Source: an uncultured Candidatus Saccharibacteria bacterium (GTDB lineage Bacteria > Patescibacteriota > Minisyncoccia > Minisyncoccales > GWA2-38-27). Taken from it: a stretch of DNA of 59,795 nt. Made by a program: the position numbers and the translations under genes. Below the pieces are notes generated by a model that was not told where the DNA came from, did not search any database, and was given only the letters and a program-made list of their open reading frames with translations. Of the stretch, positions 4,621 to 51,313 are shown piece after piece. How positions within the stretch are numbered: the stretch's first letter is position 1; each line of letters opens with the position of its first letter. Location: positions 1-59,795 of the forward strand of contig CAYMJA010000001.1 of NCBI GenBank assembly GCA_964391095.1, in the 5' to 3' direction.

Positions 4621-7600
4621 ATGAAGTTTACCCACCTCCATGCCCATAGCCATTATAGCCTACTTGACGGTTTACCTAAAATCGATGAACTTTTAGATTA
4701 TACTAAAGAATTAGGAATGGACTCCTTAGCTTTAACCGACCACGGGGTTTTATATGGAGCAGTAGAGTTCTTTCAAAAAGCCAAGAAAAAAGGAATTAAG
4801 CCAATAATAGGGGTGGAAGCATATGTTGCTTTTGAGAAGATGACCCAGAAAAGACCAAATATAGATAATAAAAGATATCATTTGGTTCTGCTGGTAAAAA
4901 ACGAAGAGGGCTATAAAAATTTAGTCAAACTTATAACTAAAGCCCATTTAGAGGGTTTTTATTATAAGCCGAGAATAGACGAAAAACTTTTGGCAAAACA
5001 TTCTAAGGGTCTAATTGCTTTAACCGCTTGTTTGGCAGGAAAAATTCCTCGTTTAATTTTGGCGAAAAAATTTGAAGAAGCCGAAAATACGGCTCTAAAA
5101 TACCAAAATATTTTTGGTAAAGATAACTTTTATTTAGAACTTCAACATCATCCTCATATAGCGAAGCAAAAAATTGTTAACAAAGCACTAATCTCTATCT
5201 CAAAAAAATACGGCATTCCTTTGGTAGCAACAAATGATGTTCACTATCTAAAGCCAGAAGATGCCGAAGCTCAGGATACTTTGATGTTAATTAACACTGG
5301 AGCTGACCCCAATGACCCAGAAAGGGTAACTATGAAAGCAGATGATTTTTCTCTAAAAACTCCAAAAGAAATGATAGAAGATTTCAAAGAAGTTCCTGAA
5401 GCTATTGAGAATACACAAAAAATTGCCAATGCCTGCGATTTTCAATTTGAACTGGGGAAAGTCAAGCTACCCTATTTTGAAGTGCCTAATGGAAAAACCC
5501 CGAATGAATACTTAGAAGAACTTTGCTGCCAGGGATTAAAAAATCGATACGGCTCAAATCCCAGCAAAGAGATTATAGACAGATTTAATTACGAGCTTTC
5601 GGTTGTTAAACAAACTGGCTTTGCTTCTTATTTTTTAATAGTTCAAGATTTTGTTAATTGGGCTAAAGAAAACAGAATTATTGTCGGTCCAGGTCGAGGA
5701 TCAGTTGGAGGCTCTTTGGTAGCTTACTTATTAAACATTACAAACATCGACCCCTTAAAGCATAATCTCTTATTTCAGCGTTTTCTGAATCCCGAACGAA
5801 TCTCAATGCCTGACATTGACCTCGATTTTACCGACCGAAGAAGAGATGAGGTTATAGATTACATCGCCCAAAAGTATGGACGGGATAAAGTGGCTCAAAT
5901 TATTACTTTCGGAACAATGGCGGCCCGAGCAGTAATAAGAGATGTTGGCAGGGCTTCAAATTATACTTATAGTTACTGCGATAAAATCGCTAAAATGATC
6001 CCTTCTGGATTTAATTTAAATAGGGCTTTAAAAAACATTAAAGAGTTTAGGGATATTTATGAAACCGATGAACAGGCGAAAAAATTGATTGACTTAGCAA
6101 AAAAATTGGAAGGCGTAGCCCGCCACGCTTCAACTCACGCCTGCGGTATAGTAATATCTGAACAGCCCCTCTCAAACTTAATTCCCCTACAACATCCTAC
6201 TCAAAATGATAAAAATATCATTACCCAATACGAGATGCATTCAATTGAAAACCTGGGACTTTTAAAAATAGACCTTTTGGGCCTAAAAAATTTAACTGTT
6301 ATTGAAGACACTCTATCTAGAATTTATGTAGTTCGGGAAGGGAAAAAGGTTAACATTGAAAATATCCCTTTTGATGATAAAAGGGTTTATAAACTCTTAC
6401 AAAGGGGCGATACCACCGGTGTATTCCAACTGGAATCATCGGGTTTCCAAAGATATTTAAAGCAACTAAAACCCACTGAATTTGAAGATATTGTGGCTAT
6501 GGTTGCTCTTTATAGGCCGGGTCCAATACAGTTTATTCCAGATTACATTGACAGAAAACATAAAAGAAGAAAAATAGAATATTTACATCCAAAACTAAAA
6601 CCAATATTAGAAAAAACCCAAGGGATTTGTATTTTCCAGGAACAGTTGATGCAAATTGCTCAGCAATTAGCCGGTTTTACTCTTTCAGAGGCAGATGTTT
6701 TAAGAAAAGCAGTTGGAAAAAAAATAAAGAGTCTACTTTTAGAGCAAAAAGATAAAATGATGCAGGGGATGTTAAAAAACGGAATAAATAAAGAAGTCGC
6801 TCAAAAAATCTGGGAGTGGGTTTTGCCATTCGCTAAGTATGGCTTTAACCGCGCTCATTCAACTGCCTACGCTATTATTGCCTATCAAACTGCCTATCTA
6901 AAAGTTCACTATCCAGTAGAATTTATGGCTGCTCTTCTAACTTCTGAGAGGGCCGATATTGAAAGAATTGCTGTTTTAATTGAAGAATGCAAAAAAATGG
7001 GAATTGAAGTTCTTCCTCCAAATATCAACGAGAGTTTAAAAAACTTCACCGTTGTTCTTTCCCCCACCCCAATTTTGTCAAAGGTCCTTGATGGCAAGGC
7101 GATCGGGACCATTTTTCCTCGAAAAATGACGGGAAGCAAAATAAGATTCGGACTCTTGGCTATAAAAAATGTCGGCCAGAATATCATTGATGTTATTATT
7201 GAAGAAAGAAAAAATAACGGTTCTTTTCAAAGCATTGGAGATTTCCTTCAGAGGGTTAACTCAAAAGACCTAAACAAAAAATCTCTGGAAAGCTTAATTA
7301 GGACTGGGGCTTTCGATGGCTTAGCAGAAAGAAATCAACTTTTAGACAACTTAGAAAGGCTGCTTGAATGGGCACGAGAAACTCAAAAAGCAAAAATGAA
7401 TGGACAAAAAGGACTTTTTGATGATAATCCAAAATCTAACAAGAATGAAATCTCTCTCCTTCCTGCTCCTCCGGCTACAAATTTTGAAAAGTTAAATTGG
7501 GAAAAAGAACTTTTAGGTCTTTATGTAACCTCCCATCCTTTGGAGGAGTTCAAGGAAATTTTAGAAAAGAAAACTTTATCTCTAGTTAATATTAACAATG

Positions 7601-17399: not shown

Positions 17400-18014
17400 A
17401 TGGCGGAAAGTGAAGAAAATACTGGTTATGAAATAGGAAAATGGTATATGGTTGAGATCGATCGTAAGGTTTTTATCCCGGCAAAATTCATTGGTCTCAG
17501 AAAACCTTGCCCCTTACCAATTGAGCTCTCTCATGATTTTCCTCATCCAGGGCAAGCAGTATTTGAAAACGTAAAAATCTACAGCGGATGCGGATTCAAG
17601 GGTGCTGACTGGAAAGAAGATTCAGGATATAGAAACCTAGGAATAGGAGGAAGATATACTAACTTTGCACCTACTTTTAGACCGGTAACTGAAAATGAAT
17701 TATGGGCTGTTAGAGCAATTGAAAAATTCCAGGAAATTGTAGCTGGCAGAGAAAAATCTTTCAGTATCACTATGAACAATGGTTGTCGGCTTGAAGGAAA
17801 AATCCAGCCGCCAAAAAAGAAAGACAACCTAGCTGGTGAATATTACAGCAAGGTAATCAACCCAAAAACTAGAGAATCAAAAGAGGGAAAATTTGATTAT
17901 GACGGCAAAAGTGAGTCGGTTCAAGTTTATCTTTTATCGAGGCTACCAGGGTGGCATATCATTGAAGTAAAACAACAAAAAATCTTTTTTGGCATACCGC
18001 AAAAAAGTAACTAA
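17400..18014 (+). CDS. Hypothetical protein (204 aa)
   Basis: Strong RBS, own promoter and terminator. No motif recognised. Confidence 0.7.
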   Translation: MAESEENTGYEIGKWYMVEIDRKVFIPAKFIGLRKPCPLPIELSHDFPHPGQAVFENVKIYSGCGFKGADWKEDSGYRNLGIGGRYTNFAPTFRPVTENELWAVRAIEKFQEIVAGREKSFSITMNNGCRLEGKIQPPKKKDNLAGEYYSKVINPKTRESKEGKFDYDGKSESVQVYLLSRLPGWHIIEVKQQKIFFGIPQKSN

Positions 18015-18021
18015 AACATAT

Positions 18022-18057
18022 GAGGTAATCTTAATGATAGGTTACCTCTTTTTTTTC
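18022..18057 (+). terminator. Rho-independent terminator
   Basis: GAGGTAA...TTACCTC followed by T9. Confidence 0.75.
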
Positions 18058-18079
18058 TTTAAAATGTTATAATTATAGT

Positions 18080-19054
18080 GTGAAAAAAAATAAAAGAGAA
18101 AAACTTATTGTTATCTTGGGACCAACAGCTAGCGGGAAAACCGCGCTTTCTATTAAACTCGCTAAAAATTTTAATGGCGAGATTGTTTCTGCGGATTCAA
18201 GACAAGTCTACAAAGGAATGGATATTGGTACTGGCAAAATAACCAAAAAAGAAATGAAAGGTATCCCCCATTATCTTTTAGGTGTCGCTTCCCCAAAAAG
18301 GAAATTTTCTGTTGCTCAATATCAAAAATTAGCTCAAAGGGCTATAGAGAAAATTCTCAAAAAGCAAAAAATTCCTTTCTTGGTTGGAGGATCCCCTTTT
18401 TATATTTACTCGGTTGTTGAAGGTTGGATTTTTCCGAAAATGAAGCCAAATTGGCAGTTAAGAAAAAAATTAGAAAAACAATCTAAAGAGAAACTTTTTT
18501 CAACTTTGAAAAAACTTGACCCTCAAAGGGCTAAAACCATTGAAAAAGAAAATAAAAGAAGATTAATCCGAGCAATTGAAATTGCCAAAACCCTTGGAAA
18601 GATACCGAAACTTAAAAAAAATCCTCAATTTGATGTTTTAATGCTTGGTATTAAAAAAGACCCTGAAGGGCTTAAAAAATTAATAAGAAAAAGGTTGTTA
18701 AAGAGGTTAAAAACAAGCCCGCCCGCAACGCTTCGCAAGCGAGCTTGCTCGCGTAGCGATGCGGACGGGGGAATGATTAAAGAAGTAGAAACACTTCACA
18801 AAAATAATATTAGTTGGAAAAGATTAGAAGAATTTGGTTTAGAATACCGATACATTGCTTTATACCTTCAGGGAAAATTAGGGAAAGAAGAAATGCTGGA
18901 AAAATTACAAAAAGAAATTGAACATTTCGCTAAAAGACAAATGACCTGGTTTAGGAAAGACAAACGAATTAAGTGGGTAGAAAATTACCAAGAGACAGAA
19001 AAATTAATAAAAGGATTTCTAAAAAAAGGAGGAAGAAAAATTCTTCCTCTTTAA
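18080..19054 (+). CDS. miaA: tRNA dimethylallyltransferase MiaA (GTG start) with in-frame GC-rich insert
   Basis: ILGPTASGKT P-loop, SADSRQVYKGMDIGTGK, FAKRQMTWFR. Confidence 0.93.
   Translation: MKKNKREKLIVILGPTASGKTALSIKLAKNFNGEIVSADSRQVYKGMDIGTGKITKKEMKGIPHYLLGVASPKRKFSVAQYQKLAQRAIEKILKKQKIPFLVGGSPFYIYSVVEGWIFPKMKPNWQLRKKLEKQSKEKLFSTLKKLDPQRAKTIEKENKRRLIRAIEIAKTLGKIPKLKKNPQFDVLMLGIKKDPEGLKKLIRKRLLKRLKTSPPATLRKRACSRSDADGGMIKEVETLHKNNISWKRLEEFGLEYRYIALYLQGKLGKEEMLEKLQKEIEHFAKRQMTWFRKDKRIKWVENYQETEKLIKGFLKKGGRKILPL
18717..18771. repeat. GC-rich palindromic element (core CGCCCGCAACGCTT) in-frame in miaA
   Basis: GCCCGCCCGCAACGCTTCGCAAGCGAGCTTGCTCGCGTAGCGATGCGGACGGGGG. The same core occurs in gyrB and rpsD. 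Confidence 0.9.
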
Positions 19055-19493: not shown

Positions 19494-19527
19494 ACCCTTC
19501 ACCTTTAATCTGTTAAAGGTGAAGGGT
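19494..19527. repeat. CCCTTCACC-family inverted repeat at the gatB 3' end
   Basis: ACCCTTCACCTTTA-atctgt-TAAAGGTGAAGGGT. The right arm encodes the last residues and the stop of gatB. Confidence 0.9.
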
Positions 19528-21003
19528 CAAGAATTCTTGGATTAAGCGGTTAACTATTTCGGGATTAGCTCTTCCTTTAGTAGCAGCCATTACCTGTCCT
19601 ACTAAAAATTGAAGGGCATTTTTTTTACCTTTTTTATAATCTCCAACTACTTTTTGATTTTTTGAGAGAACATTTTTTATTACTTTTTTAATCTCTTCTT
19701 CATTAGTTAATTGGGTCCAACCCTTTTCTTTAATAATATGGGAAGGGTCAGCGCCTGTTCCGAACATTTCTTCTAAAACTTGTTTTGCTATTTTGCTTGT
19801 TATTTTTCCTTCATAAATTAAAGTAACGAACTCAGCGAAATTCTCCGGAGTGATTAAAAAATCTTCGCCAGAAACCAGGGCCCTCTTAAGTAATCTTTGA
19901 AGGTCGGTGATAATATAATTTGAAGCAAGTTTAATCAATTGATTCTTTTCCTGTTCAGCAATTTTTGTCTTAAATTCAATTACCTTTAGCCAGTTTCTCA
20001 ATTCTGAAACTACTTTTTCAAAATATTCGCCGAGGTCTTTATTTGCGATAAAGATATTAGAACTTTTCTCTTCTAAATTATACTCTCTAACAAACCTTTC
20101 TCTCTTTTGTTGGGGCAACTCAGGGATTTCTGCCCTTATTTCTTGAATAAAATTCTTATCTAAATGAAGAGTTGGTAAATCGGGTTCGGGAAAGTATCTA
20201 TAATCATAAGCTTCTTCTTTTTCTCGCTGGCTAACCGTTGCTTTTTTTATGTCATTCCATCCTCGGGTTTCCTGAACAATCTTTTTGCCGGCATTTAAAA
20301 TTTCTTTTTGTCTTTTGATTTCATAGTTAACTGCCCCTTCTACCGCCCTAAAAGAGTTCAAGTTCTTAATTTCAACTTTGGTTCCTAACTTATCTAAAGT
20401 TTTATTCTCCGGCAAAAGAGAAATATTTACCTCCACACGCAACTGTCCTTTCTCCATATCAGCATCGGAGACACCGAGATATCTTAAAATTAGTTTTAAT
20501 TCTTCAGCAAATTTTCTTGCCTCTTTAGCTGTTCTCAAATCTGGCTCAGTAACTAACTCCATTAAAGGAATACCCGCTCTATTGAAATCAACTAAAGAAT
20601 AATTTTCCCTTTCGGGGTGAATTAATCTTCCAGTGTCTTCTTCAAGATGAACCCTTGTTATGCGAATTTTTCTATTCTCAGTCTGTAAAAAACCATTTTT
20701 ACAAAGAGGTTTATCATATTGAGAAATCTGGTATCCTTTTGGTAGGTCAGGGTAAAAATAATTTTTCCTATCAAATTTTGAATCTTCAGGAATTTGGCAA
20801 TTTAAAGCTAACCCTGTTTTGATTACTTTTCTTACCGCGTCTTTATTAATAACAGGAAGTGTTCCTGGATGTCCAAAACATATTGGGCATATATTAGTAT
20901 TCGGACGATGCTCGTTAGGATCGTTCTTACAAGAACAAAACATTTTACTCCTGGTTTTTAACTCAGTATGTATTTCAAGACCAATAATGGATTGGTAGTT
21001 CAT
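19513..21003 (-). CDS. gatB: Asp/Glu-tRNA amidotransferase subunit B
   Basis: MNYQSIIGLEIHTEL...CPICFGHPGTLP, GatB/YqeY C-terminus. Confidence 0.95.
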   Translation of the reverse strand: MNYQSIIGLEIHTELKTRSKMFCSCKNDPNEHRPNTNICPICFGHPGTLPVINKDAVRKVIKTGLALNCQIPEDSKFDRKNYFYPDLPKGYQISQYDKPLCKNGFLQTENRKIRITRVHLEEDTGRLIHPERENYSLVDFNRAGIPLMELVTEPDLRTAKEARKFAEELKLILRYLGVSDADMEKGQLRVEVNISLLPENKTLDKLGTKVEIKNLNSFRAVEGAVNYEIKRQKEILNAGKKIVQETRGWNDIKKATVSQREKEEAYDYRYFPEPDLPTLHLDKNFIQEIRAEIPELPQQKRERFVREYNLEEKSSNIFIANKDLGEYFEKVVSELRNWLKVIEFKTKIAEQEKNQLIKLASNYIITDLQRLLKRALVSGEDFLITPENFAEFVTLIYEGKITSKIAKQVLEEMFGTGADPSHIIKEKGWTQLTNEEEIKKVIKNVLSKNQKVVGDYKKGKKNALQFLVGQVMAATKGRANPEIVNRLIQEFLTLHL

Positions 21004-24494: not shown

Positions 24495-24523
24495 ATAATA
24501 GCCAAAAAGAATCTAAATGTCAA
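24495..24523 (-). promoter_or_regulatory. Sigma70-like promoter for secE-nusG-rplK (GGGTTGACA-17-TATTAT)
   Basis: The -35 box immediately follows the arm of the 24523-24608 inverted repeat. Confidence 0.55.
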
Positions 24524-24608
24524 CCCTTCACCTTTCGGTAGTCATTTAGCATGAAATCAAACTCTATCTATTCCTTCATACAGTAAACATTCCCGAAAGG
24601 TGAAGGGT
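24523..24608. repeat. CCCTTCACC-family element: 16-bp perfect inverted repeats flanking 54 nt
   Basis: ACCCTTCACCTTTCGG ... CCGAAAGGTGAAGGGT, with TCAA on both outer flanks. Confidence 0.9.
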
Positions 24609-24615
24609 CAAGATA

Positions 24616-28819
<4,204 letters not shown>

Positions 28820-30647: not shown

Positions 30648-30648
30648 G

Positions 30649-30719
30649 TTGCGGGGCCGGGATGTGCGCCCGGGTCTCGAGGTTATGGGCCTCGCAAGAT
30701 ACTACTTCTCCACCCCGCA
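30649..30719 (-). tRNA. Atypical tRNA-like gene, CAT anticodon, degenerate D and T loops (71 nt)
   Basis: Cloverleaf: TGCGGGG-TG-GAGA-AGTAGTA-TCTT-G-CGAGG-CCCATAA-CCTCG-AGAC-CCGGG-CGCACAT-CCCGG-CCCCGCA-A. GC-rich and located 1 nt from the next tRNA. Confidence 0.5.
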
Positions 30720-30724
30720 ATTGT

Positions 30725-30779: not shown

Positions 30780-30823
30780 GGCTATGACAAAAATCCCGCG
30801 ATCGCGGGATTTTTGTCATAGCC
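30780..30823. repeat. Perfect 44-nt palindrome (22-bp stem, GATC centre)
   Basis: GGCTATGACAAAAATCCCGCGA|TCGCGGGATTTTTGTCATAGCC. Confidence 0.9.
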
Positions 30824-42696: not shown

Positions 42697-42723
42697 TTTA
42701 CCTCTTCTGCCATTGGGGAGCAC
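42697..42723. repeat. Direct repeat 2: authentic rpsI 3' end (stop plus last 8 codons)
   Basis: Identical 27-mer, encoding APQWQKR* on the minus strand. Confidence 0.95.
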
Positions 42724-43267
42724 GGCGAGCGCGCTTTAAGCCAAATTTCTTTCTTTCTCTGACTCTTGGGTCCCTCGTTAAATAACCTGCTTTACGTAAT
42801 CTCTTGCGAAAATCAGGGTTAAACTTTACTAATGTCCGAGCTATCCCGTGTCTTACAGCTTCAGCTTGGGCATAAATTCCTCCTCCTCTTACTTTGACCA
42901 AAACCTTAAACTTATCAAGGGATTTCATCTTCCTGAGAGAATCGGTAGCAACTTGCTGAAGTTCAGGAGTAAAAAAATAATTCTGATAAGGTTTTGCATT
43001 AACTAAAATCTCCTTTTTCCCTTTAGTAAAAATTCTCACCCGAGCCAGCGCTGTTTTTCGTTTGCCAATACTCTCAAGATATCGCGCCGGTTTGATAGCT
43101 TTCTTCTTAACTTCTTTTTTCTCAACCTTCTTCTTGGTAGTTGTTTTCTTTTCTACTTTCTTTATTTTTTCACCCCCCCGCACCTTTTCTGCAGAAATGG
43201 TGCTGGGTTTAGCCTTCTTGGGTTTCTTCCTGGCAGATTTTTTGGTTTTAGTTATTACTTTCTTCAT
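42698..43267 (-). CDS. rpsI: 30S ribosomal protein S9 with about 60-aa Lys-rich N-terminal extension
   Basis: GKRKTALARVRI...GGGIYAQAEAVRHGIARTL...RERKKFGLKRARRAPQWQKR. Confidence 0.95.
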   Translation of the reverse strand: MKKVITKTKKSARKKPKKAKPSTISAEKVRGGEKIKKVEKKTTTKKKVEKKEVKKKAIKPARYLESIGKRKTALARVRIFTKGKKEILVNAKPYQNYFFTPELQQVATDSLRKMKSLDKFKVLVKVRGGGIYAQAEAVRHGIARTLVKFNPDFRKRLRKAGYLTRDPRVRERKKFGLKRARRAPQWQKR

Positions 43268-44953: not shown

Positions 44954-45619
44954 TTAACGTGAGTAAAATTCGAAAATAGCAGAAATTTCTGCTGGCGGAA
45001 TTATTTCTTCTGAAGACGGTTCGCTAATAATTTCTCCCTCCAATTTTTCAATATTAACTTTAATCCAAGAAGGAGGTTTATACTTTTTTAAAACTGTAGG
45101 AAGGTTTTGAAAAATAATTTTTTTACGGGAACGAGGATTCAAACTAATCTTATCGCCCTTTTTTGTCTGAAAAGAGGGAATATTAACCATCTTTCCATTA
45201 ACTAAAAAATGATTATGGTTAATAATTTGATGGGCTTGACGACGAGAAGGAGTAAACCCCATTCTAAAAACCACATTATCTAAACGGCTTTCTAATTTTT
45301 TCACCAATAAAGCGCTTGTATCTTCCCCGCCCGCAACGCTTCGCGAAGCGATGCGGGTGGGTACCTTTCCTCGTTTTTCAAGAACTTCTTTTATATATTT
45401 TCTAAATTGTTTTTCTTCCAAATTATACCAAGCTTTTAATTTCTGTTTTTCTCTTAATTCCCTTCCATATTCAGAAATCGTCCTTCTTCTTCTCTTGCTT
45501 TTTATTCCTGGCGAATACGGTCTTGTTACCATTGAACACTTTGGCGATAAGCATCTCTCGCCTTTAAGAAAAAGTTTCTGCCCTAACTTTCTACAAATTT
45601 TACATTTATTACTTTTCAT
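44954..45619 (-). CDS. rpsD: 30S ribosomal protein S4 with in-frame GC-rich insert
   Basis: Zn-ribbon N-terminus (CKICRKLG...CLSPKC), LESRLDNVVFRMGF, S4 domain. Confidence 0.95.
   Translation of the reverse strand: MKSNKCKICRKLGQKLFLKGERCLSPKCSMVTRPYSPGIKSKRRRRTISEYGRELREKQKLKAWYNLEEKQFRKYIKEVLEKRGKVPTRIASRSVAGGEDTSALLVKKLESRLDNVVFRMGFTPSRRQAHQIINHNHFLVNGKMVNIPSFQTKKGDKISLNPRSRKKIIFQNLPTVLKKYKPPSWIKVNIEKLEGEIISEPSSEEIIPPAEISAIFEFYSR
45325..45361. repeat. GC-rich palindromic element (core CGCCCGCAACGCTT) in-frame in rpsD
   Basis: CCCCGCCCGCAACGCTTCGC|GAAGCGATGCGGGTGGG, encoding PTRIASRSVAGG. Confidence 0.92.
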
Positions 45620-49901: not shown

Positions 49902-50423
49902 TTAGCTGTATCTGTCCGCTACTACTGAGGCAATATAGGCCTCTGGTTTAATTTTGGGCTCAAATCCATTGCCCCGAATAAGTCCGGTTAATTCTTTTAT
50001 CATATCTTTTGTTTGACCATTTTCACCAATATCAGCATGGATGTAACGGAATTGATAACGAAAATCTTTGCTTTTCAATTTCTGGATTTTCTTCGTGAAA
50101 TTCTCTCTTAAAAACAAAGCAAAATCACAAGATAATAAAACCTCTTGTAAAATGCGATTTCTCCAATTAACAAATCTTTTATTAAAGTTAGAAGAATATT
50201 TTACTTTCTTAAGAAAAAATCTTCCTCCTTCGCCTACTCTCAAAATCGCCACAGCTACCGGAAAATGCGGCTCATTTCCCGAGGAAGAATCACAGCCGAC
50301 AATAATATCATAGAATTTCTCTGGTTTTTCTAACATATAATTTATCATCTCCTCCATCACTTTTTCGGCTGTTAAATTTCCTCGGGTTGGATTAAAAAAA
50401 TGACCTTGCAAAGTTTTTTCCAT
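49902..50423 (-). CDS. YkuK/DUF458-like RNase H-fold protein
   Basis: DIIVGCDSS...AVAILRVGEGGRFF resembles the YkuK family. This is from memory; moderate confidence. Confidence 0.5.
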   Translation of the reverse strand: MEKTLQGHFFNPTRGNLTAEKVMEEMINYMLEKPEKFYDIIVGCDSSSGNEPHFPVAVAILRVGEGGRFFLKKVKYSSNFNKRFVNWRNRILQEVLLSCDFALFLRENFTKKIQKLKSKDFRYQFRYIHADIGENGQTKDMIKELTGLIRGNGFEPKIKPEAYIASVVADRYS

Positions 50424-50530: not shown

Positions 50531-51313
50531 TTAAACACTCACTACTTTGATTATCTCAATAAACTCTTTGGCGTTTAAAGAGGCTCCTCCGACAAGAAGC
50601 CCTTGAAGATGGGCTTCTTTTATATAAGCAGCGGCATTTTTACTATTTACACTACCTCCATAAAGAATTCTAATCTTTTTAGCAATTGGAGAACTATAAA
50701 GTTTAGTAATAATCTTTCTAATAAGCAAACCTATTTTCTGGCTTTCTTCAACACCACAAGCTTTCCCTGTCCCAATGGCCCAAATAGGTTCATAAGCAAT
50801 AATGATTTTAGAAAATTTAGCTTTTGAAACGCCCTTAAGGTTAAAAATGAGCTGATTCCTTAAAACTTTTTCAGTATTTCCTTGCTCTCTCTCTTTTTTG
50901 GCTTCACCAATACATAAAATAGGACTCATTTTAGCTTTAATGACAGCCCTTAATTTTTTGTTTATTATTTCGTCGGTTTCCTGAAAATATCTTCGCCTCT
51001 CAGAATGGCCGATAATAACATATTGACAAGCTAAATCCAAAAGCTGGTCCGGAGAAATTTCACCCGTATAAGCCCCTTTTTGTTCCCAAAAACAATTCTG
51101 CGAGCCAAGGACAAGTTTTCCTCCGCCCGTTTTTTGACGGGCGGAGGAAAGGGCTCCTAAAATAGGAAGGTAAATAAAGGGCGGACAAATAACTACCTCG
51201 ACTTTTTTGAAATCTCTCAACCCTTTTTTAACTGAATTAAAGAGACATTTAGCTTCACTTACGGTTAAGGGATTCATTTTCCAGTTGGCAATAACTAAGG
51301 GTTTCATATTCAT
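50531..51313 (-). CDS. tpiA: Triosephosphate isomerase with in-frame GC hairpin insert
   Basis: IANWKMN, IIGHSERR, AYEPIWAIGTG, GGASL. Confidence 0.95.
   Translation of the reverse strand: MNMKPLVIANWKMNPLTVSEAKCLFNSVKKGLRDFKKVEVVICPPFIYLPILGALSSARQKTGGGKLVLGSQNCFWEQKGAYTGEISPDQLLDLACQYVIIGHSERRRYFQETDEIINKKLRAVIKAKMSPILCIGEAKKEREQGNTEKVLRNQLIFNLKGVSKAKFSKIIIAYEPIWAIGTGKACGVEESQKIGLLIRKIITKLYSSPIAKKIRILYGGSVNSKNAAAYIKEAHLQGLLVGGASLNAKEFIEIIKVVSV
51120..51147. repeat. GC-rich hairpin (CCTCCGCCCGT/ACGGGCGGAGG) in-frame in tpiA
   Basis: 11-12-bp stem around a T-rich loop, encoding SARQKTGGG. Confidence 0.85.

Follow-up and report, generated by a model that had tools for sequence, protein, structure and literature searches.

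The 59,795-nucleotide (nt) contig CAYMJA010000001.1 of an uncultured Candidatus Saccharibacteria bacterium (NCBI GenBank assembly GCA_964391095.1), referred to here over its full length as the window, contains four copies of a palindrome rich in guanine and cytosine (GC), which we designate HP and whose basic unit is 36 nt long (CCCGCCCGCAACGCTTCGCGTAGCGATGCGGGCGGG). The copies lie inside miaA, gyrB, rpsD and pheT, and every one of them is in frame and free of stop codons. Insert-free alleles in relatives, together with more than 150 copies in public contigs from many projects and sequencing methods, make it very likely that HP is a mobile, translated and selfish palindrome. We also consider probable the fuller reading in which this mobile selfish element is the cis partner of a GIY-YIG nuclease system; that the nuclease itself moves HP is a tentative suggestion, the link between the two being associative.

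Four translated copies of HP in the window

The miaA copy (18718–18769, + strand) is a 52-nt long variant in which a 16-nt inner hairpin (AAGCGAGCTTGCTCGC) occupies the centre of the 36-nt unit. Its host gene, encoding tRNA dimethylallyltransferase (18080–19054, +; Pfam IPPT, E = 3e-62), specifies a protein of 324 amino acids (aa), compared with about 295 aa in most homologues, and 18 additional residues stand between two conserved blocks. Relative to empty alleles the insertion measures 54 nt (18716–18769), or 18 codons, and encodes SPPATLRKRACSRSDADG. The palindrome scores 35.9 bits (E = 1.4e-6) against a covariance model built from 17 HP variants, folds as RNA at −32.9 kcal/mol (z = −5.0) and is identical at 51 of 52 positions to the copy in a different metagenome-assembled genome (MAG), labelled Bdellovibrionales (L037).

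The gyrB copy (25906–25977, +) consists of two nested 36-nt units, 72 nt in total: the outer unit is divided into 25906–25923 and 25960–25977, and a diverged inner unit (25924–25959), which aligns with a nested copy in another locus (L077), lies exactly in its middle. The gene runs on the opposite strand (24616–26646, −; Pfam HATPase_c, DNA_gyraseB, Toprim and DNA_gyraseB_C), from which the palindrome is translated as 24 residues. The copy in the gene for ribosomal protein S4 (rpsD, 44954–45619, −; Pfam Ribosomal_S4 and S4) is a codon-aligned 36-nt unit at 45326–45361 (+) that departs from the consensus at two positions, scores 58.8 bits (E = 2.5e-12), folds at −24.1 kcal/mol and is translated from the minus strand as PTRIASRSVAGG. 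In pheT (26651–28819, −; Pfam B3_4, B5, tRNA_synthFbeta and FDX-ACB), a 42-nt member of the family (27354–27395, +) has arms of the CCCGCCTGC...GGGCAGG subfamily and is translated from the minus strand as 14 residues; its covariance score is weak (15.7 bits, E = 0.17) and its RNA fold reaches −24.5 kcal/mol (z = −3.2). The covariance model recovered these four copies in the window and no others. GC content per kilobase of the window is 0.29–0.42, and the other GC islands considered as inserts were ruled out, those in dnaE (6117) and gatA (32326) being conserved catalytic motifs and another a tRNA gene.

The original prediction, a reading of the letters of the window, had described a 55-nt GC-rich string in miaA, which is located at 18717–18771 exactly as given, and had treated it as an extra segment of the protein; the segment is real, with the narrower limits stated above. 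It had also reported a 14-mer (CGCCCGCAACGCTT) from miaA, gyrB and rpsD. This core has exactly three exact occurrences, at 18720, 25908 and 45328, so that the gyrB and rpsD coordinates had been off by one, and it has five matches at two or fewer mismatches, a number that none of 100 dinucleotide shuffles attained. The assignment of the host genes as MiaA, GyrB and ribosomal protein S4 is borne out by Pfam, and the peptides read in miaA (SPPATLRKRACSRSDADG) and rpsD (...SRSVAGGE) are as proposed, the gyrB copy ending in ...QSVAGE and not in ...SVAGG. The copies do share one absolute orientation, all four scoring higher on the + strand of the window; with four copies this would arise by chance with a probability of 1/8 and is therefore not significant. 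The pheT copy, the nesting in gyrB, the 52-nt extent in miaA and the link to GIY-YIG and tRNA or transfer-messenger RNA (tmRNA) genes are additions to that prediction.

Empty sites and protein context

Insert-free alleles, which the original prediction had proposed to seek among orthologues, exist for miaA, gyrB and pheT. The closest relative (L004, protein P0002; MiaA 77% identical) lacks the miaA insert, as do most homologues, and its DNA reads AAG ATA GGA ATG where the window has AAA ACA (54 nt) GGA ATG. A relative with the same gene order (L260; GyrB 86% identical as protein, gyrB 81% identical as DNA) provides an empty gyrB site, GAC GAA AGA/GAA GAA, at which the surplus in the window is the palindrome and amounts to exactly 72 nt; its PheT is shorter by exactly 14 codons at the insert site, the 42-nt surplus in the window again being the palindrome. 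Neither of these exact empty sites shows a target duplication. This relative has a nested HP-family pair of its own, at another site in miaA. Together with the flank profile and genomic contexts described below, these comparisons show that HP inserts as bare element DNA without target-site duplication, in either orientation, and in genes as well as intergenic DNA.

Two contigs from two other metagenomes (L001 and L002) are 100% identical to the window over the miaA insert, and this insert is therefore no assembly artefact. More generally, the chance is negligible that the inserts go back to an ancient loop peculiar to the lineage, to an accident of composition or to faulty assembly: the idea draws on the prior that metagenome assemblies can be chimeric, and it is opposed by the identical assembly in those two further metagenomes, by the empty sites in relatives and by exact DNA repeats over four genes and more than 150 public contigs. 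Nor is the core confined to one site, the same DNA being found in unrelated genes and at intergenic positions. The original reading of a selfish palindromic repeat in open reading frames (ORFs) that keeps the frame is supported in kind; its account of the element as an inhabitant of ORFs holds for the four in-frame copies of the window, and the family as a whole is neither gene-specific nor specific to the candidate phyla radiation (CPR).

The surface loop suspected in MiaA is modelled by AlphaFold as low-confidence coil (residues 213–229; predicted local distance difference test (pLDDT) score <50) between two helices (195–210 and 232–241). The other inserts likewise coincide with alignment gaps: the S4 insert is a 15-aa gap relative to Thermus thermophilus S4, between the N-terminal and S4 domains; the GyrB insert is a gap relative to Escherichia coli GyrB, in the linker between the ATPase and transducer domains; and the PheT insert is an 11–13-aa gap relative to T. 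thermophilus PheT. Such positions bear on the proposal that host benefit keeps the hairpins in frame, through slowed ribosomes at domain boundaries, tuning of mRNA stability or useful linker loops, which we regard as very unlikely. It would accord with the high stability of the hairpins (−24 to −33 kcal/mol), with the location of the rpsD and gyrB copies between domains and with the comparison between the window and a more diverged homologue (L003, MiaA 65% identical), in which the miaA palindrome is 94% identical and its flanks about 73%. Against it stand the close relatives without inserts. The same sequence also turns up in unrelated genes, whichever its orientation and in several frames, and most of its copies, drawn from several phyla, are intergenic. 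An inter-domain position is also what tolerance alone would predict, and the MiaA loop is predicted to be disordered.

Anatomy of the unit

The limits of the 36-nt HP unit (CCCGCCCGCAACGCTTCGC/GTAGCGATGCGGGCGGG) were defined from a profile of 148 distinct copies, in which conservation sets in and ceases abruptly, the ends being CCCGCCCGC...GCGGGCGGG. The same profile contains no target-site duplication and no target motif, the flanks showing only a slight preference for G/C at one to two bases beyond each terminus. The palindrome is almost perfect; its two conserved departures from symmetry, A11/A26 and T16/T21, give the unit polarity, and it folds as RNA at −29 kcal/mol (z = −5.3). Among the matches listed, a scope that applies to all HP copy counts, context fractions and GIY-YIG link counts below, the 36-nt form accounts for 129 of 164 pattern-matched copies. 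The remaining forms include variants of 52–54 nt with an additional inner hairpin of 16–18 nt at the exact centre, and whole units nested in the centres of other units occur in three further loci (L077, L011 and L090) as well as in the gyrB copy of the window. New units can thus land at the centres of existing ones, and the nested copies and long variants arise in this way.

One pair of positions covaries (C17:G25 to T17:A25), which hints at a small central hairpin of the form YGC-GTA-GCR. Variation in the outer arms is mostly one-sided C-to-T change, and hairpins as opposed to duplex inverted repeats are for this reason not proven. A search of Rfam 15 curated families at gathering score, over the window and 20 HP-bearing loci, returned only tRNAs.

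Distribution and genomic context

HP was sought in one genome per species with a 17-mer (at least 119 loci matched) and in Joint Genome Institute (JGI) metagenomes with a two-arm pattern (at least 120 loci matched). About 31 of the genome loci have the full palindrome, and about 90 are chance hits in GC-rich genomes, without the second arm. By record title, the genuine copies come from Patescibacteria (Moraniibacteriota, Parcubacteria, Daviesbacteria, Giovannonibacteria, Gribaldobacteria, Falkowbacteria and Jorgensenbacteria) and also from at least eight Verrucomicrobiota MAGs, four 'Bdellovibrionales' MAGs, Margulisiibacteriota, Blastocatellia and others. The JGI contigs with HP have mostly 50–60% GC. 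A phage or plasmid vehicle was considered and rejected: 2 of 2.9 million IMG/VR contigs match, and GenBank phages and PLSDB plasmids yield none.

Most copies are intergenic, and HP is found in either orientation in genes and in intergenic DNA. Among 131 copies with enough flank, 27 lie inside a spanning ORF (at least 60 codons on each side), compared with 51% of random positions in the same loci, and about three quarters are outside any such ORF; 18 adjoin a GIY-YIG ORF, and the remainder fall between genes or next to one ORF. In low-GC loci all clear within-gene copies are in frame, and these loci offered no clear case of a frame-broken gene (the L226 copy is intergenic; the candidates L039 and L155 were left out). 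An exact 36-nt addition is seen in a valyl-tRNA synthetase (L137), in which LGWP has become LGW(PARNASRSDAGG)P. The unit is stop-free in five of its six frames, one forward frame having a TAG; the peptides that it encodes are PARNASRSDAGG (the commonest) and PPATLRVAMRAG in one orientation and PARIATRSVAGG and PPASLREALRAG in the other.

These properties also bear on whether the hairpins are translated at all. Byp elements are stable GC-rich hairpins in AT-rich genes, which HP superficially resembles, and HP additionally occurs inside tRNA-like sequences; on this view the inserts might be excised from the transcript, or ribosomes might bypass them in the manner of T4 gene 60 or mitochondrial byp. 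We judge this highly improbable. The copies in the window and the clear within-gene copies in low-GC loci are all multiples of three and stop-free in the host frame, lengths that weigh against skipping because skipped or excised inserts would have no need of them. The window copies have neither matched take-off and landing codons nor a stop codon at the 5′ junction, and the tRNA pieces with HP are duplicated fragments beside intact tRNA genes, not functional genes. HP as a translational bypass element was rejected on the stop-free, multiple-of-three lengths of the window copies and their want of matched codons.

A GIY-YIG gene beside HP at tRNA and tmRNA genes

Small ORFs of the type MFYTYVLKSEKDGNLYVGWT...EKQLKTGFGRAYLKRRL recur in the flanks of non-coding HP copies. 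A profile made from four of them matched seven of the roughly 31 genome loci with a true HP and none of the roughly 90 chance-hit control loci, and such an ORF directly adjoins 17 of the 113 copies with both flanks (about 15%). The gene lies 7–46 nt from HP, on either side, as measured at its start or stop codon. Its product is a protein of 77–88 aa with the Pfam domain GIY-YIG (PF01541, E = 1e-16 to 6e-16) as its sole domain, and it matches PDB entry 1ZG2, annotated as UPF0213 (E = 3.4e-7). The family comprises at least 1383 clusters at 90% identity, typically of 78–81 aa, many of them labelled Patescibacteria. HP copies adjoining two of these genes (L246 and L252) have the same arm type as the pheT copy of the window.

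The association was also examined in reverse, from five independent GIY-YIG genes chosen by protein identity alone and without reference to HP. In all five (L246, L247–250, L251, L252–256 and L257/258) HP lies 13–23 nt from the start or stop codon, and the covariance model found no further HP in these loci, over 20 kb each where the contig was long enough. The gene is usually adjacent to a tRNA or tmRNA gene, with a duplicated piece of tRNA that bears the HP. Between modules the GIY-YIG proteins are 48–99% identical (median 61%), and the adjacent HP is almost invariant, which suggests a constrained cis element.

Copies within 400 nt of a tRNA or tmRNA gene number 31 of 164, compared with 7.6 ± 2.1 at random positions in the same loci, and the modules at these genes are of several types. 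In the upstream type, a 5′ tRNA fragment with an internal HP is followed by the GIY-YIG gene and an intact tRNA gene (L011, L037, L082, L246, L252 and L257; tRNA-Gln and tRNA-Glu), the position of HP within the fragment being variable (8/9, 11/12, 12/13 or 19/20). In the tRNA-Val type, the intact gene is followed by the GIY-YIG gene and a 3′ tRNA fragment with HP in the T-stem, or the arrangement is mirrored (L026, L038, L115, L124, L206 and L239). At tmRNA genes the order is smpB, GIY-YIG gene and an HP abutting the 5′ end of ssrA (L119, L157, L223 and L240), and at a protein gene (L247) it is glyS, GIY-YIG gene and a diverged second copy of the 3′ end of glyS, which contains HP. HP may have either orientation in these modules, and the piece that bears it is always a non-functional duplicate. 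One crossover between the intact target and a small unit composed of target fragment, HP and GIY-YIG gene could produce such duplications. Functional tRNAs with HP were sought by in-silico excision and ARAGORN with 72 boundary variants per copy and were rejected, a junction-spanning tRNA being obtained from L115 only; the other HP-bearing tRNA pieces are duplicated fragments beside an intact tRNA.

Two further loci may be recorded here. In L098 (about 5640–5830) a partial tRNA 5′ half with HP after G19 of the D-loop lies directly upstream of an intact tRNA-Thr, without a GIY-YIG gene, and may be the remnant of a module. The Magasanikbacteria-like contig with the glyS module (L247) has a 23S_rRNA_IVP-family gene between tRNA-Thr and tRNA-Tyr (17848–18201).

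A proposed nuclease-plus-palindrome model

The bare unit is a multiple of three in length, enters without duplication and is stop-free in five of six frames, and for these reasons it never shifts the frame; a frame kept by construction, together with tolerance at loops, would suffice to account for the HP copies in essential genes. A bare unit appears usually to add 12 small or polar residues, such as PARNASRSDAGG or PARIATRSVAGG. Copies would survive where the added loop is tolerated, hence in essential genes of a tiny, gene-dense genome, and the four copies of the window would be translated selfish passengers with no host function. HP would be the cis-acting partner of a stand-alone GIY-YIG nuclease of about 80 aa and of the UPF0213/YhbQ type; the protein would recognize HP and drive its spread, and solo copies, including the four in the window, would be acted on in trans. 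The pair would then operate in the manner of REP sequences and their RAYT transposases, the nuclease gene being marked by its own palindrome. It is conceivable, if somewhat doubtful, that HP and this protein constitute an undescribed nuclease-plus-palindrome mobile system that settles beside tRNA and tmRNA genes, passes from phylum to phylum (episymbiotic Patescibacteria and other bacteria being an example) and scatters frame-neutral units, leaving 12-residue loops in essential proteins.

The principal alternative is that another enzyme moves HP and that the small GIY-YIG gene is a separate parasite or a tenant of the palindrome, either a homing-type endonuclease gene that recognizes it and inserts a short fixed distance away or a gene that uses the hairpin to stabilize or bound its transcript beside a tRNA. 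Endonucleases such as I-TevI cut at a set distance from their binding site, and the narrow spacing of 7–46 nt on either side of the palindromic site resembles this behaviour; moreover, 85% of the HP copies have no GIY-YIG gene nearby, and beside a tRNA gene a stable hairpin at either terminus of the GIY-YIG message could shield it once the tRNA has been processed. We nevertheless consider this alternative unlikely. HP is present at all five independently sampled GIY-YIG genes and is far better conserved than the protein, which fits direct recognition, and homing into dispersed HP sites would have to proceed without flanking homology. No other candidate enzyme, such as a Y1 transposase or an integrase, was noticed beside HP among flanking ORFs that lack systematic annotation. 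Homing with co-conversion at the miaA site shared with L003 was rejected, the flanks adjacent to HP being no more alike between the window and L003 than the remaining gene (about 63–69%).

Several observations count against the model in which HP is a mobile selfish palindrome partnered by the GIY-YIG nuclease. The link between the two is associative, and the protein has no DNA-binding domain; its gene has one complete HP, on one side, and not two flanking ends as in a classical transposon; and a profile search of the 59.8-kb window found no GIY-YIG gene. Frame neutrality is imperfect, since the 52-nt miaA variant alone would shift the frame, and two extra bases (AG, or AA in L003) restore it. 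L003 has an insert at the same miaA site, identical at 51 of 54 positions, whereas closer relatives have none; one old event with subsequent losses, transfer between lineages and a hot spot could each produce this pattern. The outer stem exhibits little compensatory variation. Some copies lie in the D- and T-arms of tRNAs, some are nested and a few have palindromic flanks (L035, L067 and L090), which had raised the idea that HP targets hairpin loops; as a general rule this was rejected, the flanks of 145 distinct copies having 2.41 complementary pairs per 10 as against 2.60 in shuffled flanks. Finally, the phylum labels are MAG titles as deposited, and some of these MAGs may be mis-binned.

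Should the model be correct, even the smallest and most gene-dense bacterial genomes hold active selfish DNA in their gyrase, S4, phenylalanyl-tRNA synthetase (PheRS) and MiaA genes, and the 36-nt, stop-poor, duplication-free design is what makes insertion into core genes survivable. A GIY-YIG nuclease paired with a hairpin of its own would mean that the REP/RAYT arrangement had been invented twice, independently, and would give the large UPF0213/YhbQ-like family a concrete biological role. A near-identical element in different phyla would be a marker of gene flow between Patescibacteria and other bacteria. On the practical side, HP would add spurious loops to protein alignments and break tRNA and tmRNA detection, and its GC-rich islands could pass for contamination in MAG quality control.

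Other palindromes and RNA features

The window contains a second palindrome family with the core ACCCTTCACCTTT...AAAGGTGAAGGGT. One copy (2605–2636) is in frame in the lysine-rich C-terminal tail of an ORF at 2478–2942 that looks like ribosomal protein S16, where it encodes SPSPLAKGEGL; another (19494–19527) is at the 3′ end of the ORF at 19513–21003, and a third (24523–24608), with arms 54 nt apart, is just downstream of the gyrB stop codon. An 11-bp GC hairpin at 51117–51149 (CCTCCGCCCGT-TTTTTG-ACGGGCGGAGG) is in frame in a triosephosphate-isomerase-like ORF (50531–51313), which reads LSSARQKTGGGK there, and may represent a further small palindromic insert, from a family other than HP (only 15.7 bits against the HP model). 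Inverted repeats were also seen in the N-terminal extension of an S9-like ORF (43176–43207 in 42698–43267) and, with 25-nt arms, inside the ORF at 49902–50423 (50278–50386).

Upstream of a tRNA cluster, intergenic DNA at 30780–30823 forms a perfect palindrome of 22 + 22 nt (GGCTATGACAAAAATCCCGCGA/TCGCGGGATTTTTGTCATAGCC). Directly upstream of the called tRNA-Met, a GC-rich tRNA-like sequence on the minus strand (about 30648–30722) has a CAT anticodon loop and an unusual T-loop (GCGGGGTGGAG...CCCGGGCGCACATCCCGGCCCCGCA) and is called by neither ARAGORN nor Rfam. The 85-nt sequence at 1054–1138 (−), which ARAGORN reports as 'tRNA-Phe (aaa)' and for which Rfam has no match at gathering score, has a CTGTAAA anticodon loop and a long variable arm and looks like a class II tRNA-Tyr(GTA).

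Additional inserts occur in MiaA homologues. L003 (about 1380–1420, in the MiaA of P0010) has a second, unrelated in-frame hairpin at another site, CAGACACCCGATG-N14-CATCGGGTGTCTG, with a perfect 13-bp stem and a length of about 12 codons that encode DVCCSRHRVSDG; the homologues P0040, P0060, P0071 and P0080 have more inserts, rich in Pro, Ala, Arg and Gly, at various sites. In L259 (2737–4493), another relative, the threonyl-tRNA synthetase gene is divided between two ORF calls that overlap (391 aa and 207 aa), which points to a frameshift or an irregular junction; the region shows no GC island.

Relation to known systems

In the literature searched (open-access papers and bioRxiv) we found no description of the HP element or of its pairing with a GIY-YIG gene, and both look undescribed. 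The closest precedent for palindromes within essential genes is that of the Rickettsia palindromic elements (RPEs), reportedly described by Ogata et al. RPEs are selfish palindromes of about 100–150 bp, not especially GC-rich, that lie in frame in essential protein genes and in RNA genes, are translated as extra surface segments and vary in presence between relatives; to our knowledge they are confined to Rickettsia and have no known associated enzyme. HP shares with them the in-frame palindromic repeat in ORFs and the existence of insert-free orthologues, so that the resemblance noted in the original prediction stands as an analogy between selfish in-frame palindromes; HP is not a member of an RPE family. 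Its unit measures 36 nt, with copies of 36–72 nt in the window, and it is GC-rich, spread over several phyla, mostly intergenic and linked to a GIY-YIG gene; homologues of the window proteins indicate a Patescibacteria/CPR host, not Rickettsia. The separation is drawn from the description of RPEs, and relatedness in sequence is not expected.

Yeast var1 provides a case of an in-frame mitochondrial GC cluster, and we know of no dedicated nuclease for such clusters. Like HP, they are GC-rich palindromes in AT-rich genomes that enter genes, including in frame, and that nest; they differ in being organellar and unrelated in sequence. GC clusters and other hairpin repeats are documented in fungal and sponge mitochondrial genomes (for example, PMC2800124). 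HP was also considered as a miniature inverted-repeat transposable element, its two halves being inverted repeats, and was rejected as such: the flank profile and the exact empty sites have no target duplication, and there is no parent element with the same two ends, the GIY-YIG gene having one HP on one side.

Free-standing GIY-YIG homing endonucleases near tRNA genes are exemplified by T4 SegB; enzymes of the Seg type exceed 200 aa and have DNA-binding domains. We know of no palindromic repeat partner for Seg-type systems or for the GIY-YIG systems of CPR rRNA genes. The protein found beside HP shares with both groups a gene that is located beside or inside structured-RNA genes and apparently horizontally transferred, and it differs from Seg proteins and I-TevI in being a bare catalytic domain of about 80 aa with no separate DNA-binding domain. 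Its profile-detectable domain and its similarity to a UPF0213 structure place it in the UPF0213/YhbQ-like branch of the GIY-YIG proteins. GIY-YIG ORFs in non-intron insertions of CPR rRNA genes have been reported together with short ORF-less insertions at stem-loop tips, in a paper that contains no word beginning 'palindrom' (PMC11270868), and transfer of GIY-YIG genes from Patescibacteria to other bacteria has been predicted (PMC12455944).

The arrangement as a whole most closely recalls the REP and REPIN sequences with their RAYT (TnpA-REP) transposase (PMC2817692, PMC3337134, PMC3733652 and PMC8266576). Both consist of short (20–40 nt), GC-rich, imperfect palindromes in many dispersed copies, and in both the palindrome also marks the small nuclease gene, and trans action on the solo copies is presumed. 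The partner of REP is an HUH/Y1 transposase, whereas the gene associated with HP is a GIY-YIG gene (PF01541), in a survey that did not include a dedicated RAYT profile run over all loci. A GTAG or CGTC head is lacking in HP, which terminates in CCCGCC and has GTAG in its central loop only. Furthermore, unlike REP, HP enters coding sequence in frame, is near-identical across phyla and forms modules at tRNA and tmRNA genes.

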